DNA of 64,000 nt from an uncultured delta proteobacterium (GCA_963716775.1 CAVQUI010000004.1:416360-480359); one strand, 5' to 3'; shown: positions 24,614 through 54,656, counted from the stretch's first letter. Numbers and translations are program-made. Notes: a model not told the origin generated them from the letters alone.

Positions 24614-25675
24614 TCAGAGCCGGTCGTCGCGGCCGGTGGCCAGCACGACCCGATTGCGGCCCGCAGCCTTGGCGCGAAAGAGCGCACGGTCTGCGGTCGT
24701 CATGAGGCGTGCCTTGACGTCGTTCGATGGCTGGCCGTTGAGCTTGCGCAGGCCGTTGAGCATGGCTACGCCGACCGAAACGGTGATCGTTGGTAGCGTT
24801 CCGCCCGGGCGCATCGGCCCTGCGGTGCTCGCCGCGACGTGGCTTCGCAAGTGATTCGCGAGCGACCGGGCGCTTTCTTTCGAGGCGCGCTTCTGGACTA
24901 CGATGAACTCGTCGCCGCCGAAACGAAACACCTCGCCAACGCCGGCGGCGGCCTCGTGTAGCGCCTTGCCCGTGCGCTTCAATGCTTCGCTGCCGGCCGC
25001 GTGGCCGAATTTGCTGTTCACGCGCTTCAGATGGTCGACGTCTACGAACATGATCGCCATGTCGCGCTCACCTCTTCGCGCGGAAGTCACGGCCTTGGTC
25101 AGCTCACTATTGAGCTTCCTGACGTTCCGCAGCCCCGTCAGCGGATCATGCGCGGCCAATCCCTCCTGCCGCCGAAGCGACGAGGTTTGGATCAGTGATG
25201 TCGTGATGTAGCTGGACAGTCCTGCGACTACCTTCCTGTCGCGACTCGTGAACTGCGCGGGCGCCTTCGGGTTGACCAGTTGCAGAATTCCAAGGGGCCG
25301 GGTTCCGTCGTGCAAAGGCGCGACTAAAGCCACTCGAGTTTGCTGCGACGAGCGCGCCGAGAACTGTGAATCCACCGAAGGTGATGACGCAATGAAAGGT
25401 GTTTGCCTTTCGAGCACGCGCTTGGCCCAGTCGGAGTGAAGAACCGTCCCTCGCTCGAGGAGGTGCTTGCTGTCCGGACCGCAAGCGGCGACACAGAAAA
25501 GCGACTCTGGCGTTTGTCCGAGGTAGAGCGCGCCGCCGGTCGCACGAACCGCGAGCGCAGCTGCCCCGAGCCCTTCTTCGAGCACCCGCATGACAGGCCG
25601 CGCCCGGGAGCTAGATGCCCCGAGCACGGATTCCTCGAGTTTTACCCCCCTCAAGGTGTGAATCCGCACGATCAA
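24614..25675 (-). CDS. GAF domain-containing diguanylate cyclase (GGDEF)
   Basis: N-terminal GAF-like region, then DPLTGLRNVRKL...MFVDVDHLKRVNSKFGHAAGSEAL...FRFGGDEFIV with an intact GGDEF motif. The start may be the internal ATG near 25591. Confidence 0.85.
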   Translation of the reverse strand: MIVRIHTLRGVKLEESVLGASSSRARPVMRVLEEGLGAAALAVRATGGALYLGQTPESLFCVAACGPDSKHLLERGTVLHSDWAKRVLERQTPFIASSPSVDSQFSARSSQQTRVALVAPLHDGTRPLGILQLVNPKAPAQFTSRDRKVVAGLSSYITTSLIQTSSLRRQEGLAAHDPLTGLRNVRKLNSELTKAVTSARRGERDMAIMFVDVDHLKRVNSKFGHAAGSEALKRTGKALHEAAAGVGEVFRFGGDEFIVVQKRASKESARSLANHLRSHVAASTAGPMRPGGTLPTITVSVGVAMLNGLRKLNGQPSNDVKARLMTTADRALFRAKAAGRNRVVLATGRDDRL

Positions 25676-48083: not shown

Positions 48084-48881
48084 GTGACGAACTTTCGCAA
48101 TTGGTTGAAGAACACCCAAGAGCGCCGCGCCGGGACACCCCGGCTCAGAACGATGCAGGGTCTCCCCGACGTGCTCACGCTCGGCAACCTCAGCGTGGTG
48201 TATCAGCCGATCGTTTCGCTCAGCACGATGGAGCCATTCGCCCACGAGGCACTGGTTCGAAGCAACTCGCCGCACTGGGTCAACCCGCCGAAGCTCTTCG
48301 ACGAGGCGATTCAGTCTAGGTGCGTGGGCGCCTTGGGCCGCGCGATTCGCGAGCTCTCCATTGCGCATTGCCCTGGGATGCCGCTGTTTCTCAACGTGCA
48401 CCCCAACGAGTTCGACGAGTCTTGGCTCGTGCAGCCGGACGACCCCATCTTCACTCACGATTCGCCGATCTATCTCGAGGTGACCGAGTCGGTTCCGCTA
48501 ACCCATTTCGCATACTGCCACAGTGTTCTTCGCGAGATTCGGGGCAAGGGGGTTGCGCTTGCGGTCGACGACCTGGGCGCCGGCTACTCGAACTTGAAGT
48601 ACATCGCCGACCTCAGGCCCGAGGTGGTCAAGCTCGATCGGACCTTAGTCGCCGACCTTGCCGACGATCGCCGTGCGCAGGTCTTGGTTCGTCACATCGT
48701 GCAGCTTTGTCACGAGCTCGGGGCGCGCGTCGTCGCCGAGGGCATCGAGCTCGAAAGCGAAATGAAGGTCGTCATCGATTGCGGCGCAGACTACGGTCAA
48801 GGCTACTACTTTGCGCGCCCGGCGTACCCTGCGCCTGGCGTCAGTGAAGCGCCGCTCGAAGTCATCCGGAAGCTCGCCTAG
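48084..48881 (+). CDS. stand-alone EAL domain c-di-GMP phosphodiesterase
   Basis: YQPIVSL...HEALVR, NVHPNE, LEVTE, DDLGAGYSNLKYI, KLDRTLV, AEGIE, GQGYYF. All catalytic positions appear intact. No sensor domain. Confidence 0.85.
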   Translation: MTNFRNWLKNTQERRAGTPRLRTMQGLPDVLTLGNLSVVYQPIVSLSTMEPFAHEALVRSNSPHWVNPPKLFDEAIQSRCVGALGRAIRELSIAHCPGMPLFLNVHPNEFDESWLVQPDDPIFTHDSPIYLEVTESVPLTHFAYCHSVLREIRGKGVALAVDDLGAGYSNLKYIADLRPEVVKLDRTLVADLADDRRAQVLVRHIVQLCHELGARVVAEGIELESEMKVVIDCGADYGQGYYFARPAYPAPGVSEAPLEVIRKLA

Positions 48882-48891
48882 CCAGCGCGTT

Positions 48892-50568
48892 TCAGAATGG
48901 GACGGACTGGTAGCTGACGTCCCCGGCTTCGTGGCCTTGGACTTCGAGGATCGCGCTCACGCGCTGCCCTTCGGGCCCACGCTGCATCGAGACGACGATG
49001 TCGACCGCGCTGGCGAGCAGTTGCGCGACGTAGGTTCGGTCCGCTCCGGCGGAGCCCACGGCTAGCATGAGACCCTCGATGGCGTCTTTGGTGCTCCAGC
49101 AATGCACCCCGAGCAGGTGTCCCGGCTCACGCCCGAGCACCGCGGTCAGTGCGCTCATCGTGTCCGGCCCGCAGAGGTCGTTGATCACGAGATGCTCCGC
49201 GTGCAGTCGCGCTCCGTGCCCGATCGCTTCGCTCAGCGGGATGCCCGAGTCGGCGGCGGTTAGGGAGATCAGCCAGTCTCGATCGATGTCGAGCTCGGGA
49301 ATGGTCTCGATGGCGACCGTATTGTCGCTCGATGGAAGCTCGCGGACCAATGCGGACATGAGCTTGGTCACCCCCGAGCCGCGGGGCCCGGCGACGACGA
49401 TGTTGCGGCACTCCGCGACAGCCTTCGCCAGGTAGGTCGCTGCATCGGTGCTCATCCAGCCCTTCTCGGAGAGTTGCTCGAGCGAGTTCGCGTCGTGCAT
49501 TCGCAACTCGATGACGCAGGCGTTCATGACCAGCGGCGGCTGCAGGATCGTCAGGCTCGGGCCAAACGAGAGCCGTCCGTGAAGTACCGATCGACCTTCG
49601 AGCGCTTGACCGCTTTCCGCCGCGAGGCGCCGCGCGACCCTGTGCAGGGCGCTCTCGGAAGAGAACTTCAACGGTGCGGCTTCGAGCCCTTCGCCCTTGT
49701 CCACGAATATGTTTTCGGGTCCGTTGACGACGATGGTGCGCACCGATTCGTCGGAGAGCAGATCATCGAGAGCGCCCAAACCCACCGCTTCGTGCAGTGC
49801 TGCATGCGCCACATCGCGCATGTCCAATTCGGCGTGAACCAAGCCGTCGGTTTGCATCGCGAGGAACGTCTCGGCGATTGCCGCGCGCGCAGCCGACCAA
49901 CGCTCCTGATTCTTCATTGACGCTGGATCGATGTCGTCCATATCCATGCGCTCGGCGAGACGGCTCAACAAGGTGTTCAGCGGATCGCCGATCGAAATTC
50001 CGGTTTCGGTCTTCGCACGGGCTCGGGGCAGGCTGGTCTCTCTTCGCGGAAGCGGCAGGCTGGTTTCTCTACGTGGAATACGAGGAGGCGCTGCAGTGAC
50101 CGCTACGTCGGGTTTGAGCGCGGTCAAGCTCGAGCCTCCTGGCGTCGCTCGCCGCGCGGCCGTGGAGCGCCTCATCGGTACCGAGCTCGCCGCGGGCATC
50201 ACGGACTTGTCGGGCAAGGGAGGCGGTTCGGACACCCGCGGCATCGAACCCGCCGTCTCCGAGCGTTCGTCCACTGTTTCGAGCGTAATGATGAAGTCGG
50301 CGATGTAGATCTTGTCGCCCTGCTTCAGCGGCTGAGCCGAGGTGATTTTGCGGCCGTTGACCCAGGTGCCATTCGTGCTGTTTAGATCGACGACTACCGG
50401 CTGTTCGTCCTGTAGCGTGAGGCGCGCATGCTGCTTGGACACGTTGCGCTTCGACAAGACGATGTCGTTACCCTGGACGCGACCCAGCGTCAGCTCCGGC
50501 TTTGAAAAATCAAGCCTGCGCCGGACGCCCCCCTCATCGGTGATCACAACCGCGTACATCCCGTTCAT
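48892..50568 (-). CDS. FHA domain protein fused to a divergent T2SS/T4SS (CpaF/TadA-like) ATPase domain
   Basis: N-terminal FHA (LTLGRVQGNDIVLSKRNVSKQHARL...STNGTWVNG). Pro/Arg-rich linker with an RRETSLP duplication. The C-terminal secretion-ATPase fold has atypical motifs (Walker A GPRGSGVT at nt 49366-49389, ETIPEL, LVINDLCG, GHLLGVHC). Confidence 0.85.
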   Translation of the reverse strand: MNGMYAVVITDEGGVRRRLDFSKPELTLGRVQGNDIVLSKRNVSKQHARLTLQDEQPVVVDLNSTNGTWVNGRKITSAQPLKQGDKIYIADFIITLETVDERSETAGSMPRVSEPPPLPDKSVMPAASSVPMRRSTAARRATPGGSSLTALKPDVAVTAAPPRIPRRETSLPLPRRETSLPRARAKTETGISIGDPLNTLLSRLAERMDMDDIDPASMKNQERWSAARAAIAETFLAMQTDGLVHAELDMRDVAHAALHEAVGLGALDDLLSDESVRTIVVNGPENIFVDKGEGLEAAPLKFSSESALHRVARRLAAESGQALEGRSVLHGRLSFGPSLTILQPPLVMNACVIELRMHDANSLEQLSEKGWMSTDAATYLAKAVAECRNIVVAGPRGSGVTKLMSALVRELPSSDNTVAIETIPELDIDRDWLISLTAADSGIPLSEAIGHGARLHAEHLVINDLCGPDTMSALTAVLGREPGHLLGVHCWSTKDAIEGLMLAVGSAGADRTYVAQLLASAVDIVVSMQRGPEGQRVSAILEVQGHEAGDVSYQSVPF

Positions 50569-50794
50569 CCATTCAAGATGGGGAGGAGCCTGGCGTCAAG
50601 TCAGCGCCAATTCTCGCCCCAGCGGATGAGGCCAGACCAGCGCACCCCCTTGCCGCCTCAGGCCGATAAATATCTGAGATCACTGTATTTTAGCGACTGC
50701 GATGCTCCGCTTTCACTGCCTTAGGGTTAAAAAACGGCACCCCCTGGCCGGAATCGGTTCCACCGAAGGGGTCAACTGGGTTAGCTTACGCGGC

Positions 50795-51436
50795 ATGCCG
50801 GGAGGGTTTTTGATTGTCGAGGATGAGCCGACACTGGCTCGGACCCTCGCACGTACGTTTGGGCGTCACGGTCCGGTCGAGGTCGTGCACAGCATGGGCG
50901 CGGCCCGTGAACAGCTGAAGAACCACGAGGAGTGGACCGGCGTCGTGCTGGACCTGATCTTGCCCGATGGATACGGCTTGGACCTGCTTGCCGAGATCCG
51001 GCAGGTACATGGCGCGCTGCCAGTGCTCGTTCTCACGGGTGAGCTCAATCGTGATGTAGTTAACAAAGTTCAGACCATGCGCGGCGAGTATGTGTGTAAG
51101 CCCGCATCGGCGGACAACCTCAATCCGTTCATTCAGCGCGCGCTGGCCCAGGAGCGCGTCGACGACGCAGCCATCGGGCAACGCATCGAGCACTTGGCCC
51201 GCCAACTCAAGCTCACGCGTCGCGAAACCGAGCTTCTCACGCTTTCGGTCGATGGTCTGTCGCGCAAGGAGCTCGCCGACTCGCTCGGGGTCGCGGAGAA
51301 CACCGTCAAGGCCCAGATTCGCTCGCTCTTGAAAAAGAGTGGTGCGCGGAGCCTCGCAACCCTGGCGCAGAAGGTCATCAAAGGGGCGACGCGCGACACC
51401 GTCCCGCCCGGGGCGCCCGCGGACCTCAGCGACTGA
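50795..51436 (+). CDS. LuxR/FixJ-family response regulator
   Basis: Receiver (FLIVEDEP...VVLDLILPDG...KP) plus a C-terminal LuxR HTH (TRRETELLTLSVDGLSRKELADSLGVAENTVKAQIRSLLKK). Start at ATG 50795. Confidence 0.85.
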   Translation: MPGGFLIVEDEPTLARTLARTFGRHGPVEVVHSMGAAREQLKNHEEWTGVVLDLILPDGYGLDLLAEIRQVHGALPVLVLTGELNRDVVNKVQTMRGEYVCKPASADNLNPFIQRALAQERVDDAAIGQRIEHLARQLKLTRRETELLTLSVDGLSRKELADSLGVAENTVKAQIRSLLKKSGARSLATLAQKVIKGATRDTVPPGAPADLSD

Positions 51437-52313
51437 GCTGGACTTCCACCAGGGCTAGGTCTTGCTCAATGTGCGCACGGCTTTCGGGGGGCGCGCTTGC
51501 CGCTCGTCCGCCGATGAGCAACTTGACGCGTTTCGGAATCGCGCTTTCGATCTCAGCGATTTCTCTTTGGGAATCCTTGGGCTTCAAGTTGGTGATCGAC
51601 AACATGAGAAGCTCGGCGTTCGTGTCGGTCACCGCGTAGGCGATCTCTTCGGCCGGTAGGTCAGGGCCGAGGTAGAGCACGCTCCATCCGTGCATCGCCG
51701 CCAACATCGCCACCATGAGCGCACCGAGCTCGTGATTCTCTTTGGCGGGCGTCGCAATGACCGCCCGGCGTCTCGAGTCGTTCACGGGATAGAGGCGCAT
51801 CAGCGAGAAGAGTAGGCCGCGCATGATCGTCGAGCAGGCGTGCTCGTGTGCGATGCGAAGCTCACCGCGTTGCCAGCGGTCACCAATCTCGACGAGGATT
51901 GGTGCGACCAAGGTCTTCAAGAACTCGCTGGGCTCGGTGCTCAAGGCAGCTCGTGAGAGCATCTGTTCGGCCTCTTCGATGTGAAGCTCCTCGATCGCCG
52001 TCATCACGCGCGCTCGAAGCTCTGGTAGATGTTGCAGCGCCGGCGGACTCGATGTCTGCGGGAACGAGGCCGCCATGTGTCGAAGATCGACATTCGGTAA
52101 CTTCGCGATCCCGCCGATCGAATGACCGCTCTCGACGAGCTTCTGCAACAGCCGAAGCCTTTCGACGTCTGCATCGGTGTAGAGGCGTCCGCCAGCCTCG
52201 GTCCGCTTGGGCACGACCGCCGCGTAGCGCTTCTCCCACATGCGCAGGGCGTGGGTGGAGAGCCCCGTCATCTTCGAGACCATGCCCACCCGGTATTTTG
52301 CTTCGTCCGCCAC
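51426..52313 (-). CDS. carH: MerR-family, cobalamin-binding light-responsive transcriptional regulator (CarH/LitR type)
   Basis: N-terminal MerR HTH (YRVGMVSKMTGLSTHALRMWEKRY). W-x9-EH motif (WQRGELRIAHEH). B12-binding motif E-x-H-x2-G-x41-S-x-T-x26-GG (ENHELG...LSIT...LIGG), with spacings counted directly from the translation. Confidence 0.85.
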   Translation of the reverse strand: MADEAKYRVGMVSKMTGLSTHALRMWEKRYAAVVPKRTEAGGRLYTDADVERLRLLQKLVESGHSIGGIAKLPNVDLRHMAASFPQTSSPPALQHLPELRARVMTAIEELHIEEAEQMLSRAALSTEPSEFLKTLVAPILVEIGDRWQRGELRIAHEHACSTIMRGLLFSLMRLYPVNDSRRRAVIATPAKENHELGALMVAMLAAMHGWSVLYLGPDLPAEEIAYAVTDTNAELLMLSITNLKPKDSQREIAEIESAIPKRVKLLIGGRAASAPPESRAHIEQDLALVEVQLSR

Positions 52314-52344
52314 TTCCAGCCTCTGGGCCGGTCGAAAACCGACT

Positions 52345-52377
52345 CCGTTCAGAATTTGTCTAGGGATTGTCTATATC
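52345..52377 (-). promoter_or_regulatory. candidate CarH operator B (three tandem 11-bp repeats, degenerate) upstream of carH
   Basis: On the minus strand: gAtaTagACAa (5/5 consensus positions), tCccTagACAa (4/5), aTtcTgaACGg (3/5) against nAnnTnnACAn. It lies 32-64 nt upstream of the carH GTG. Repeat 1 overlaps a possible -10 (TATAGA) of a TTGATT-N15-TATAGA promoter-like element. Confidence 0.45.
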
Positions 52378-52426
52378 CTGCAATCTCCGAAATCAAGCAG
52401 GAAGCAAAAAAAGTGAAGCTCTACGC

Positions 52427-52454
52427 TTGACTCAGAAATGAATGTCCGTATAAA
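52427..52454 (+). promoter_or_regulatory. sigma70-like promoter for the DUF4397 gene (TTGACT-N16-TATAAA)
   Basis: TTGACT at 52427-52432 and TATAAA at 52449-52454, with a 16-nt spacer. It sits in a locally AT-rich island with an A7 tract at 52406-52412, inside an otherwise GC-rich sequence. A GGAGG RBS lies at 52489-52493, 8 nt before ATG 52502. Confidence 0.5.
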
Positions 52455-52485
52455 ACTCAACAAGACCTAGACATGACTTAGACAG
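52453..52485 (+). promoter_or_regulatory. candidate CarH operator A: three contiguous 11-bp direct repeats perfectly matching nAnnTnnACAn
   Basis: aAacTcaACAa (52453-52463), gAccTagACAt (52464-52474), gActTagACAg (52475-52485). 15 of 15 consensus positions match. It starts at the -10 hexamer and ends 16 nt before the start codon of the DUF4397 gene. Confidence 0.65.
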
Positions 52486-52501
52486 GTCGGAGGAATAGAC
52501 A

Positions 52502-53966
52502 ATGAATCGAAAAAGCATTTGGTTGGGATTTGCAGCGGCGATAGCTTTCGGGCTCGTCGGGTGTGGGGACGACACTGGTAGCTCGGGCGGTACCGCCGGA
52601 TCGGGTGGAAGCGGTGGCTCAGGCAGCGAAATGGCGATGATCCGCGTCGCCCACCTCGCGCCTGAGATTCCCTCAGCCGAGAATACTGGCGTGGACATCC
52701 TGGTTAACGGAGAGGCTTCGGGCATCGAAGACCTACAGTTCGGCAACAGCACAGCATACGTCGAGCTACCCGCAGGCGACTACACGTTCGGAATCGCGCC
52801 CACTGGCTCGACCGACTCCGTTCTCGATGTGCCTGCCACACTTCCGGCAGGTGGCATCTTCACCGTGGTGGCATACCGCGACGCAGCGGCCGCCGTTCCG
52901 GTCAAGGTCTTGCTCTTTGACGACAGCCCCGACGGCCTCGCCTCCGGTACTGGTCGCATTCTGGTTGGCCATGGTGCGGACGACAGCCTTCTCAATCCGG
53001 TCACCGTCGTGAACACCGACACCGACTCGCCGATCGTGGAGGACTTCGTTTTTGGCACGACGGCCGGCCCGCTCGACCTACCTGCGGGCAACGTGAATAT
53101 CGGCTTCGACCTGACGGGGGATGGAGTGTCGGAGACGCCGCCCTTGCAGGCGCCAATCACCTCGGACGTGGTGACTACCCTGGTTGCGGTCGACACCGAC
53201 ACCGCGGACGAGTCGCTCGCTCCAGCCGTGTACGCACTCGTTCCAACGACCAGCGGCGCAATCCCAACGCTGGGCGCGCCTCCCGCGCCGGCCCGGATTC
53301 GCGTTGCGCACTTGGCTCCCGAAGTGCCGAGCGCAGCTGACACGGGCGTTGCGATTCTCGTCAATGGCGAAGCCTCCGGGATCGACAATTTGGAGTTCGG
53401 CAATGTGACCGACTACGTCGAGCTTCCCGCCGGTGAATACGATTTCGGAATCGCGCCTGCCGGCACGACCGATTCGGTCTTCGATGTAGAGAACGTCGCG
53501 CTCGACGCGGGCGGCACCTACACCGTGGCTGCATACCGCGACAGCGCGGCCATGGTCCCGGTCAGCGTCTTACTCTTCGACGAGAACGCAGATGGCCTGG
53601 CTTCAGGTGAAGGGCGTCTGCTAGTCGGCCATGGCGCGGACGCTACGGCTGTGGACCCAGTCGACATCGTGACCGATGGCGATGCAGTGCGTTGTCGATG
53701 AGCTTGCCTTCGGCACCGTGGCCGGTCCGCTCGACCTCGCGGCGGGGCCCGTCAACATTGGCTTCGATGTCGACACTGCGGCTGCTGGCGGAGGGACCGA
53801 CGCCAACGACATGCTGGACGTGGGGCCGCTCGAAGCGCCGGTCACGGCCAATGTCGTCACCCTTCTCATCGCCGTCGACACCGACACGGGTGTTGGTTTG
53901 GCGCCGGCAGTCTACGCGCTTCTACCGACCAGCAGCGGCAGTATATCGACCCTTTCCTCTCCTTAG
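52502..53966 (+). pseudogene. lipoprotein with two tandem DUF4397 modules; one frameshift near the 3' end
   Basis: Signal peptide and lipobox (WLGFAAAIAFGLVGCG), then a Gly/Ser linker. Two ~220-aa repeats (52640-53296 and 53297-53963) each begin IRVAHLAPE.PSA..TGV.ILVNGEASGI..L.FGN.T.YVELPAG.Y.FGIAP.G. Frame change near 53683-53692: by analogy with repeat 1, DIVTDGDA should continue VVDELAFGTVAGPLDL. Confidence 0.75.
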
Positions 53967-54002
53967 GTCTCTTCCCAACACGGACATATGCGGTAGAAGC
54001 GC

Positions 54003-54039
54003 GGGGCCGCTCCTCCATAGGGGGCGGCCCCATTTTATT
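54003..54039 (+). terminator. Rho-independent terminator after the DUF4397 gene
   Basis: GGGGCCGC (54003-54010) pairs with GCGGCCCC (54024-54031), extendable by 3 more pairs. It is followed by ATTTTATT. Confidence 0.6.
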
Positions 54040-54055
54040 GTGTGGTTGACGGGTC

Positions 54056-54656
54056 GTGCTCGCTGCGGCTAGGACGGCCGACACGGTGGTTGAATCGAAT
54101 CAATCAGGCCTGTGCGCCAGGGGGCTCGTCGCTTCGCTGCTGGCGCTCGCCTCCTGCACCGAAGAGGTCGAGACGGCCACGCCCGCGCCGGTCGCACCCG
54201 CCCGGGCACAAGCTACGGCGCGAGACCCCTACCAGCACTCACCCTCGCGCTTCGGCGTCGTGCCCTTGCATGCCGGCTTCAGCCCAGACCCCCGTCTCGT
54301 GGCTGGCAGCGCCGTGGGCGAAGTGCAGGCCAGGTCGATTCACCGCAAGTGCAAGGGGTGGATTTCCGAAACCCCGGACTACCTTCTCGACGCCGATACC
54401 GCGTTCTTCCAACTTCACGTTCTCGGCTCGTTCAAGCTCCGATGTCGTGCTCGTCGTACGCAAGCCCGATGGAGCTGTTCGTTGCAACGACAACCGCAAC
54501 GGCACCAAAGACCCGATGCTCCGTTCCAACTTCCCCATCGGCACGACACAGGTCTGGGTCGGCGTGCAGGAGCAAGGTGCAACGGCTGACTACCGACTCG
54601 GATTCTCCGAGGTGAAGTGGCGCTCGTCTTCGATTCCTCTGCCCGATGCGGACTAA
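54056..54656 (+). pseudogene. lipoprotein with a PPC/pre-peptidase-C-terminal-like beta domain; one frameshift
   Basis: N-terminal part with lipobox (LVASLLALASC) and FGVVPLHAGFSPDPRLVAGSAVGEV...CKGWISETPDYLLDADTAFFQLHVLGS is in the frame of 54056. The continuation SSDVVLVVRKPDGAVRCNDNRNGTKDPMLRSNFPIGTTQVWVGVQEQGATADYRLGFSE is in the frame of 54042. Shift near 54436-54446. The family assignment is tentative. Confidence 0.55.

Follow-up and report, generated by a model that had tools for sequence, protein, structure and literature searches.

CarH, a B12-based photoreceptor of the textbooks, is in wide use as an optogenetic part, and accounts of its natural regulons deal almost exclusively with carotenoid genes. 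The subject here is a 64,000-nt stretch of DNA from an uncultured delta proteobacterium (GCA_963716775.1 CAVQUI010000004.1:416360-480359), hereafter the window, in which a carH-type gene and a gene for a DUF4397 lipoprotein diverge from one intergenic region. A preliminary description of the window had remarked on the absence of carotenoid (crt) genes, and indeed none was found in the 64 kb. Our analysis supports a canonical CarH-type switch with a non-canonical adjacent target, the DUF4397 lipoprotein. We consider it likely that the locus is a coenzyme-B12-dependent light switch of this type, acting through two operators in a single divergent promoter region.

The regulator contains three Pfam domains, all above the cut-offs in the hidden Markov model searches: MerR_1 (residues 7-72, E 2.4e-19), followed by B12-binding_2 (residues 101-168, E 1.9e-11) and B12-binding (residues 183-278, E 1.1e-12), the latter two above the gathering score and together making up the C-terminal four-helix-bundle plus Rossmann B12 module. 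The motifs attributed to it earlier occur with exact spacings. The W-x9-EH motif is WQRGELRIAHEH (residues 147-158), and the His-on B12 motif ENHELG-x41-SIT-x26-GG (residues 192-269) fits the definition ExHxxG-x41-SxT/V-x(22-27)-GG. The best solved relative is CarH of Thermus thermophilus (5C8D/3WHP, E ~1e-28), aligned over residues 4-278; in this alignment WQRGELRIAHEH pairs with WHRGEIGVAEEH of the Thermus protein, and ENHELG with ERHEIG. The DNA-recognition helix motif RMWEKRY, at residue 24, carries a K-for-R substitution relative to the RxWERRY-like definition (PMC9304148). The top NCBIfam family is NF052513, 'HTH-type transcriptional repressor CarH' (E 3.8e-40, residues 1-274), and an exact-sequence look-up of the protein found no record. 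By its domains and motifs, the regulator is a CarH-type protein with an intact adenosylcobalamin (AdoCbl)-photoreceptor signature.

The 188-bp intergenic region (52314-52501) had been singled out as the only strongly AT-rich stretch nearby, which holds: its G+C content is 0.42-0.43, compared to at least 0.54 elsewhere in the 50-55 kb interval. Its plus strand carries the triplet of 11-bp direct repeats that we call O_DUF (see the table for the coordinates of all features). O_DUF agrees with nAnnTnnACAn at 15 of 15 fixed positions and is the sole triplet match to this consensus in the 64 kb, even with 2 mismatches (0.01 expected from shuffles). It begins inside the -10 element of the DUF4397 promoter and stops 16 nt short of the start codon (ATG at 52502), as the preliminary description had it, and it takes in the expected transcription start. 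The consensus and the three-repeat Thermus operator are both borne out by the literature (PMC8156234, PMC9304148): Thermus CarH binds, as an AdoCbl-bound tetramer, to three tandem 11-bp direct repeats nAnnTnnACAn with the core TnnACA (PMC8156234).

On the minus strand, a second and more degenerate triplet, O_carH, was likewise reproduced, with 5/5, 4/5 and 3/5 fixed positions in its successive repeats. Scored against the published core TnnACA taken three times, it reaches 11/12 in the window and 12/12 in many orthologues. Its first repeat would lie over the -10 of carH, an element assigned by position alone. The start-to-start offset from O_carH to O_DUF is 108 bp in the window and 108-113 bp in almost all orthologues despite the unconserved DNA in between; L029, with an insertion in its spacer, departs from this. 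An A7 tract lies between the two -35 boxes, and an A-run is found there in most orthologous spacers; a role as a shared UP-like element or in bending is possible. The kept offset and the A7 tract may reflect a shared UP-like element or a phasing constraint on two bound oligomers.

Five of the seven TAGACA hexamers of the window fall within 52357-52501. The fifth of these (52496-52501) directly precedes the ATG; lying 17 nt beyond the third repeat, it does not keep the 11-bp phase. Only the window and its relative L001 have it, and it is probably fortuitous. An RNA element in the DUF4397 leader was considered and rejected, as the leader shows no fold beyond shuffles (z -0.08) and no match to an Rfam family, cobalamin riboswitch included.

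Table. Features of the carH-DUF4397 locus and of neighbouring genes, in window coordinates.
Feature	Position	Strand	Details
carH	51426..52313	-	295 aa, GTG start; predicted MerR-type B12-binding photoreceptor-repressor, from Pfam domains and motifs
O_carH	52345..52377	-	repeats 52377-52367, 52366-52356, 52355-52345: GATATAGACAA TCCCTAGACAA ATTCTGAACGG
Putative carH promoter	52370..52396	-	-35 TTGATT 52396-52391, 15-nt spacer, -10-like TATAGA 52375-52370
A7 tract	52406..52412	.	between the two -35 boxes
DUF4397 gene promoter	52427..52454	+	-35 TTGACT 52427-52432, 16-nt spacer, -10 TATAAA 52449-52454
O_DUF	52453..52485	+	three tandem 11-bp direct repeats AAACTCAACAA / GACCTAGACAT / GACTTAGACAG
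Shine-Dalgarno GGAGGA	52489..52494	+	7 nt upstream of ATG
DUF4397 lipoprotein gene	52502..53966	+	frame broken ~53689; 487 aa with extra base removed
Intrinsic terminator	54003..54041	+	12-bp G+C-rich stem, then T-run
GAF-GGDEF protein gene	24614-25675
EAL protein gene	48084-48881
FHA-domain T2SSE-type ATPase gene	48892-50568
Receiver-LuxR response regulator gene	50702-51436		convergent with carH

The conservation of this arrangement was examined in relatives. One genome per species was scanned for relatives of the carH locus, which gave 48 loci; 38 of these come from metagenome-assembled genomes (MAGs) of a Polyangiales/Myxococcales clade, with CarH 67-96% identical. A carH-DUF4397 pair was called when O_DUF, followed by a lipoprotein start, stood upstream of carH. 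This was the case in 22 of the 38 clade loci, and a profile built from DUF4397 homologues confirmed the gene in 19 of them, the other 3 being cut off where the contig ends or the scaffold has a gap. The synteny on which the preliminary description had proposed a check is conserved across a Polyangiales clade. In all 22 related genomes, O_DUF is preceded by a conserved TTGAC box and followed by the ribosome-binding site of the lipoprotein gene.

Column conservation was calculated from an intergenic alignment of 23 sequences. It is 0.92 for O_DUF and a mean of 0.76 for O_carH; both triplets are thus retained in orthologous intergenic regions whose surrounding DNA has diverged. The TTGAC box (0.93), the Shine-Dalgarno region (0.90; GGTCGGAGGAG), the carH -35 (gATCAAGc on the plus strand, 0.85) and the -10 of the DUF4397 promoter (0.81) are conserved too, compared to 0.54 for the inter-promoter DNA, 0.47 for the spacer of the DUF4397 promoter and 0.42 for the carH leader that flanks O_carH. 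The specificity of the repeats was assessed by scoring TnnACA taken three times, out of 12, over 416 kb (the 48 loci and the window). At a score of at least 11/12, 52 sites were found, 51 of which are O_DUF or O_carH, against 0-2 in shuffled sequences. Within 4-10 kb on either side of carH in the 48 loci, nothing scoring at least 10/12 was found beyond the two known sites, bar an isolated 11/12 in L008. Every orthologous locus retains O_carH, also where DUF4397 is missing. It should be noted that a divergent carH-DUF4397 pair is also present in L048, a more distant lineage (CarH 46% identical), where no 11-bp-phased repeats were found at 9/12 or above.

The loci that lack the target gene are equally informative. 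In nine of them (L003, L004, L005, L007, L009, L010, L012, L031 and L043), which form a monophyletic subclade sister to the group of the window, L001 and L002, the whole DUF4397 cassette (promoter, O_DUF, gene and terminator; the equivalent of ~52399-54046 in the window) has been lost, and carH adjoins the next lipoprotein gene. These loci keep carH together with a 12/12 O_carH, which ties the repeats to carH and, moreover, indicates that DUF4397 is not the only target of CarH. On the CarH tree the presence of DUF4397 is ancestral, and the codon-position G+C of the gene is normal. Horizontal acquisition of the cassette was rejected on these grounds, and a single loss in one subclade is favoured. 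A remnant persists at L036:3495-3863, in which the first two operator repeats are fused to a truncated DUF4397 fragment. L036 belongs to the same MAG as L003 and may represent a paralogue or a binning mix.

In most loci the pair belongs to a shared block that comprises an inositol phosphatase, a TPMT-type methyltransferase, a lipoprotein, DUF4397 where present, carH, a LuxR-type response regulator, an FHA/T2SSE ATPase and an EAL protein. The pair lies outside this usual syntenic block in L023/L057 (same genome) and in L006, and both operators persist there. The new flanks were annotated in L023/L057. In L057 (10895-19719), the pair stands beside a class II photolyase (TIGR00591, E 8e-108) and a CrtD-like desaturase (E 2e-54); the island also encodes DUF2141, a sulfate transporter, a CMAS-type methyltransferase resembling cyclopropane fatty acid (CFA) synthase, a DPRP/amine-oxidase fusion and a phytoene synthase. 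As photolyase and carotenoid genes are the classical company of CarH/LitR, these neighbours support a light-related role of the pair.

The product of the target gene matches PF14344 in three stretches (E 2.6e-39, 134.9 bits against a cut-off of 30.6), and the orthologues are also annotated with this family, in line with the assignment first made. Its N-terminus, MNRKSIWLGFAAAIAFGLVGC, comprises a signal peptide, the lipobox LVGC (...AFGLVGC) and a Gly/Ser linker; in the orthologues the lipobox is LVGC, ATGC or TLGC. From this L-x-x-C lipobox, the protein is predicted to be a lipoprotein processed by signal peptidase II. Once the extra base is removed, the 487-aa protein consists of two DUF4397 modules that are 64% identical (E 1e-84). 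The duplication is restricted to the window, L001 and L011, and the other orthologues have one module and ~270-290 aa. The picture of a secreted, internally duplicated DUF4397 lipoprotein thus stands as far as family, lipobox and modules are concerned, but the frame in the window is not continuous and most orthologues are not duplicated. Since a strong terminator follows the gene, the DUF4397 unit is monocistronic.

A structural model of a single module, built with 28 homologues, comprises two beta-sandwich domains and is of high confidence (predicted local distance difference test 94.8, predicted template-modelling score 0.89). In fold it comes closest to the two-domain extracellular region of PepT1/PepT2 (E 1e-6, template-modelling score ~0.6) and to single AlgF domains, with starch-binding modules matching weakly. 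By sequence, no solved structure was found for the lipoprotein, only spurious matches to Gly/Ser linkers. The PepT and AlgF matches are protein- or polymer-interaction modules that share the beta-sandwich fold, whereas the DUF4397 subfamily is predicted to be lipidated and is duplicated in the window. The model suggests an extracytoplasmic module for binding or scaffolding, but indicates no specific ligand. No function is known for members of DUF4397, and the fold matches give no catalytic or ligand assignment. Three residues, H9 (in RVAHLAP), H115 (in GHGADD) and D23, show no or almost no variation among myxobacterial and haloarchaeal DUF4397 sequences (alignment A1, window 52628-53287) and could form a metal- or ligand-binding site. 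Some distant DUF4397 homologues are fused to fasciclin (FAS1) domains.

Distant members of the family are organised differently. P0146-P0148 (33-37% identical) are encoded in operons of the type GerE-DUF4397-x-x that contain no carH, which confines the CarH link to the orthologue group of the window and the L048 lineage. The DUF4397 genes of L050 (4001-4756), L052 (2483-3283) and L054 (4001-4807) were likewise seen on Myxococcota-like metagenome contigs, in a conserved operon without carH that encodes a GerE/LuxR-type protein (~350 aa), DUF4397 and two proteins of ~314 and ~211 aa without Pfam domains.

From these elements we propose the following mechanism, in which DNA binding, cofactor and light dependence, oligomeric state and regulatory direction are taken from family knowledge and from the position of the operators. 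In the dark, oligomers of AdoCbl-bound CarH would bind the three tandem 11-bp repeats at each promoter. Occupancy of O_DUF would cover the edge of the -10, the site of transcription initiation and the first part of the leader of the DUF4397 gene, and that of O_carH the -10 region of carH. Because the operators cover both promoters, both genes would be repressed in the dark. Upon illumination, photolysis of the cofactor would cause the CarH oligomer to fall apart and to leave the DNA, allowing both genes to be transcribed. The output would be a light-induced, tethered extracytoplasmic beta-sandwich lipoprotein, which might act as a binding protein or scaffold in the envelope when cells are illuminated, together with negative autoregulation of carH.

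Several observations weigh against this reading, and some of them lend weight to an alternative. The -10 of the DUF4397 promoter is imperfect. The sequence TTGACT-N16-TATAAA, which the preliminary description had called near-consensus, is present at the positions given, but TATAAA lacks the conserved final T, for which reason a strict consensus promoter scan made no call there; the orthologues mostly have TAGAAA instead. Moreover, the 20.9-kb island of L057 contains no further triplet of TnnACA at 10/12 or above, and none at the crt or photolyase (phr) promoters.

The target gene raises a further difficulty. In the window, DUF4397 is read in two frames, 52502-53701 and then 53676-53966, the split being due to a single base at 53689 that is extra when compared to L001, which is 96% identical and has an intact gene (487 aa). 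If this frameshift is real, the switch drives a pseudogene in the window genome; it would then be a relic, with CarH working elsewhere in the genome. The intact gene of L001 and L011, the sister subclade without the whole cassette and the truncated remnant in L036 are all compatible with such a decay, which we nevertheless hold to be unlikely. The same kind of lesion recurs in places where it looks like sequencing error: the next lipoprotein gene, whose copy in L034 is intact, is broken into two frames (54056-54589 and 54042-54656) by a second extra base at 54424; L001 itself differs from the window by a 1-nt indel at 51331, in the response-regulator gene, the open reading frame of which is intact in the window; and DUF4397 is split in L002 too. 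Since single-base indels are scattered over several assemblies of the clade, assembly error is favoured, and the indels at 53689 and 54424 probably result from sequencing or assembly error. In addition, no other damage is seen in the promoter, the operator, the Shine-Dalgarno sequence or either module, and the gene has a normal codon composition.

The nature of the regulator has also to be weighed, as its dependence on B12 and light is deduced from motifs. With 137.9 bits, it falls well short of the equivalog cut-off of NF052513 (400 bits), which marks it as a divergent family member and not an equivalog of the modelled CarH. This shortfall would suit a B12-independent repressor, CarA-like or class II LitR-like, that recognises the same repeats and has no light sensing of its own. 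CarA and class II LitR share the domain layout, and CarA binds the CarH operator type (PMC9304148; PMC9758184). An antirepressor or a partner photoreceptor might lift repression by such a protein, or the protein might be constitutive or otherwise gated, and we regard both versions as quite improbable. The Wx9EH motif, which separates CarH from the B12-independent CarA (PMC9304148), and the His-ligand motif are intact, canonically spaced and aligned with those of Thermus CarH; CarA and its helpers have been reported only in Cystobacterineae (PMC9304148); and neither a LOV nor a carS-like gene was seen beside carH.

Lastly, O_DUF is invariant at every position, the 'n' positions included, which exceeds the known contact needs of CarH and could indicate a second constraint. 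This full conservation of the 33-bp block beyond T and ACA, the constant neighbourhood of carH and the response regulator gene, and the GerE/LuxR-type proteins at the head of distant DUF4397 operons could suggest a site for another factor, such as that LuxR-type regulator, or an RNA leader element, with the likeness to CarH sites arising by chance; this is highly improbable, because 11-bp-phased TAGACA repeats stand upstream of carH in every locus and are kept without DUF4397, O_DUF fits the experimentally defined CarH repeat perfectly and is statistically unique, the response regulator block is missing in L006/L023, which keep the pair and both operators, and the leader has neither a significant fold nor an Rfam match.

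The surroundings of carH in the window are rich in signalling genes, and the EAL, FHA/T2SSE and LuxR-type regulator genes constitute a conserved block with carH in most relatives. A scan of metagenome contigs for TAGACA-N5-TAGACA-N5-TAGACA returned 120 stretches, mostly an 11-bp CTAGACACTTC satellite, and one DUF4397 locus (L148); the high-G+C candidates L145 and L166 had no CarH, crt or DUF4397 context. The CTAGACACTTC tandem satellite is abundant in high-G+C marine contigs (L063-L152, e.g., L071, L075 and L094) and is unrelated to CarH.

How does a CarH-type switch upstream of a DUF4397 gene compare to the known systems? T. thermophilus CarH (LitR; 5C8D/5C8E/5C8F) has the same three-part architecture with Wx9EH and ExHxxG, and its operator likewise consists of three 11-bp repeats over promoter elements in a divergent intergenic region. 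However, the Thermus operator includes the -35 and controls carotenoid genes, whereas those of the window start at the -10 and run downstream; the window further differs by two separate three-repeat operators 108 bp apart, by its DUF4397 lipoprotein target and by the modest identity of its CarH. CarH operators overlap the -35 or the -10, and that of Bacillus megaterium can overlap the -10 (PMC9304148). Sorangium cellulosum and Haliangium ochraceum have single CarH homologues with an intact Wx9EH, as in the window (Perez-Castano et al. 2022, PMC9304148). In Sorangiineae and Nannocystineae, the operators are 11-bp repeats over -35/-10, and two different operators commonly serve divergent promoters, again like the window (PMC9304148). 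Unlike in the window, carH of S. cellulosum and H. ochraceum adjoins crt genes, and the operators that were mapped belong to crtI-carH or crtE-crtD (PMC9304148). Sandaracinus amylolyticus and Labilithrix luteola are exceptions, with carH unlinked to crt and no or one repeat site (PMC9304148). The clade of the window resembles these exceptions and has, in addition, a defined alternative target.

Control of genes other than those for carotenoids has precedents, since LitR-family regulons in Pseudomonas and Burkholderia include photolyase, CFA synthase and folE. The CarH/LitR regulons of B. megaterium are another such precedent, but its CarH binds four 11-bp repeats (PMC8156234). In the searchable literature, we found no DUF4397 protein in the described CarH/LitR regulons, nor any link between DUF4397 and CarH/LitR.

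The locus does not involve a new regulatory principle, and it leaves the view of the CarH mechanism unchanged. The lipoprotein gene is the predicted target with the strongest conservation, which extends over about twenty related genomes. O_DUF (ACCTAGACATAACTTAGACA core) is an exceptionally clean natural three-repeat operator, which makes an engineering use possible. More broadly, the principal conserved direct output of CarH in this Polyangiales clade might be a surface-tethered DUF4397 lipoprotein with a light-related role in the envelope, and not carotenoid synthesis; we put this forward tentatively and regard it as doubtful. Candidate roles for the lipoprotein would be the binding or presentation of pigments or polymers for photoprotection, or surface remodelling on illumination. 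The carH-DUF4397 pair agrees with a published puzzle, namely that in some Sorangiineae carH and the crt genes are unlinked; if this output is real, it would explain the lack of CarH sites at crt promoters in Sandaracinus-like myxobacteria. For DUF4397, the association provides a testable physiological condition, namely light and B12, and a light-related lipoprotein output would, if true, be the first functional handle on this family.

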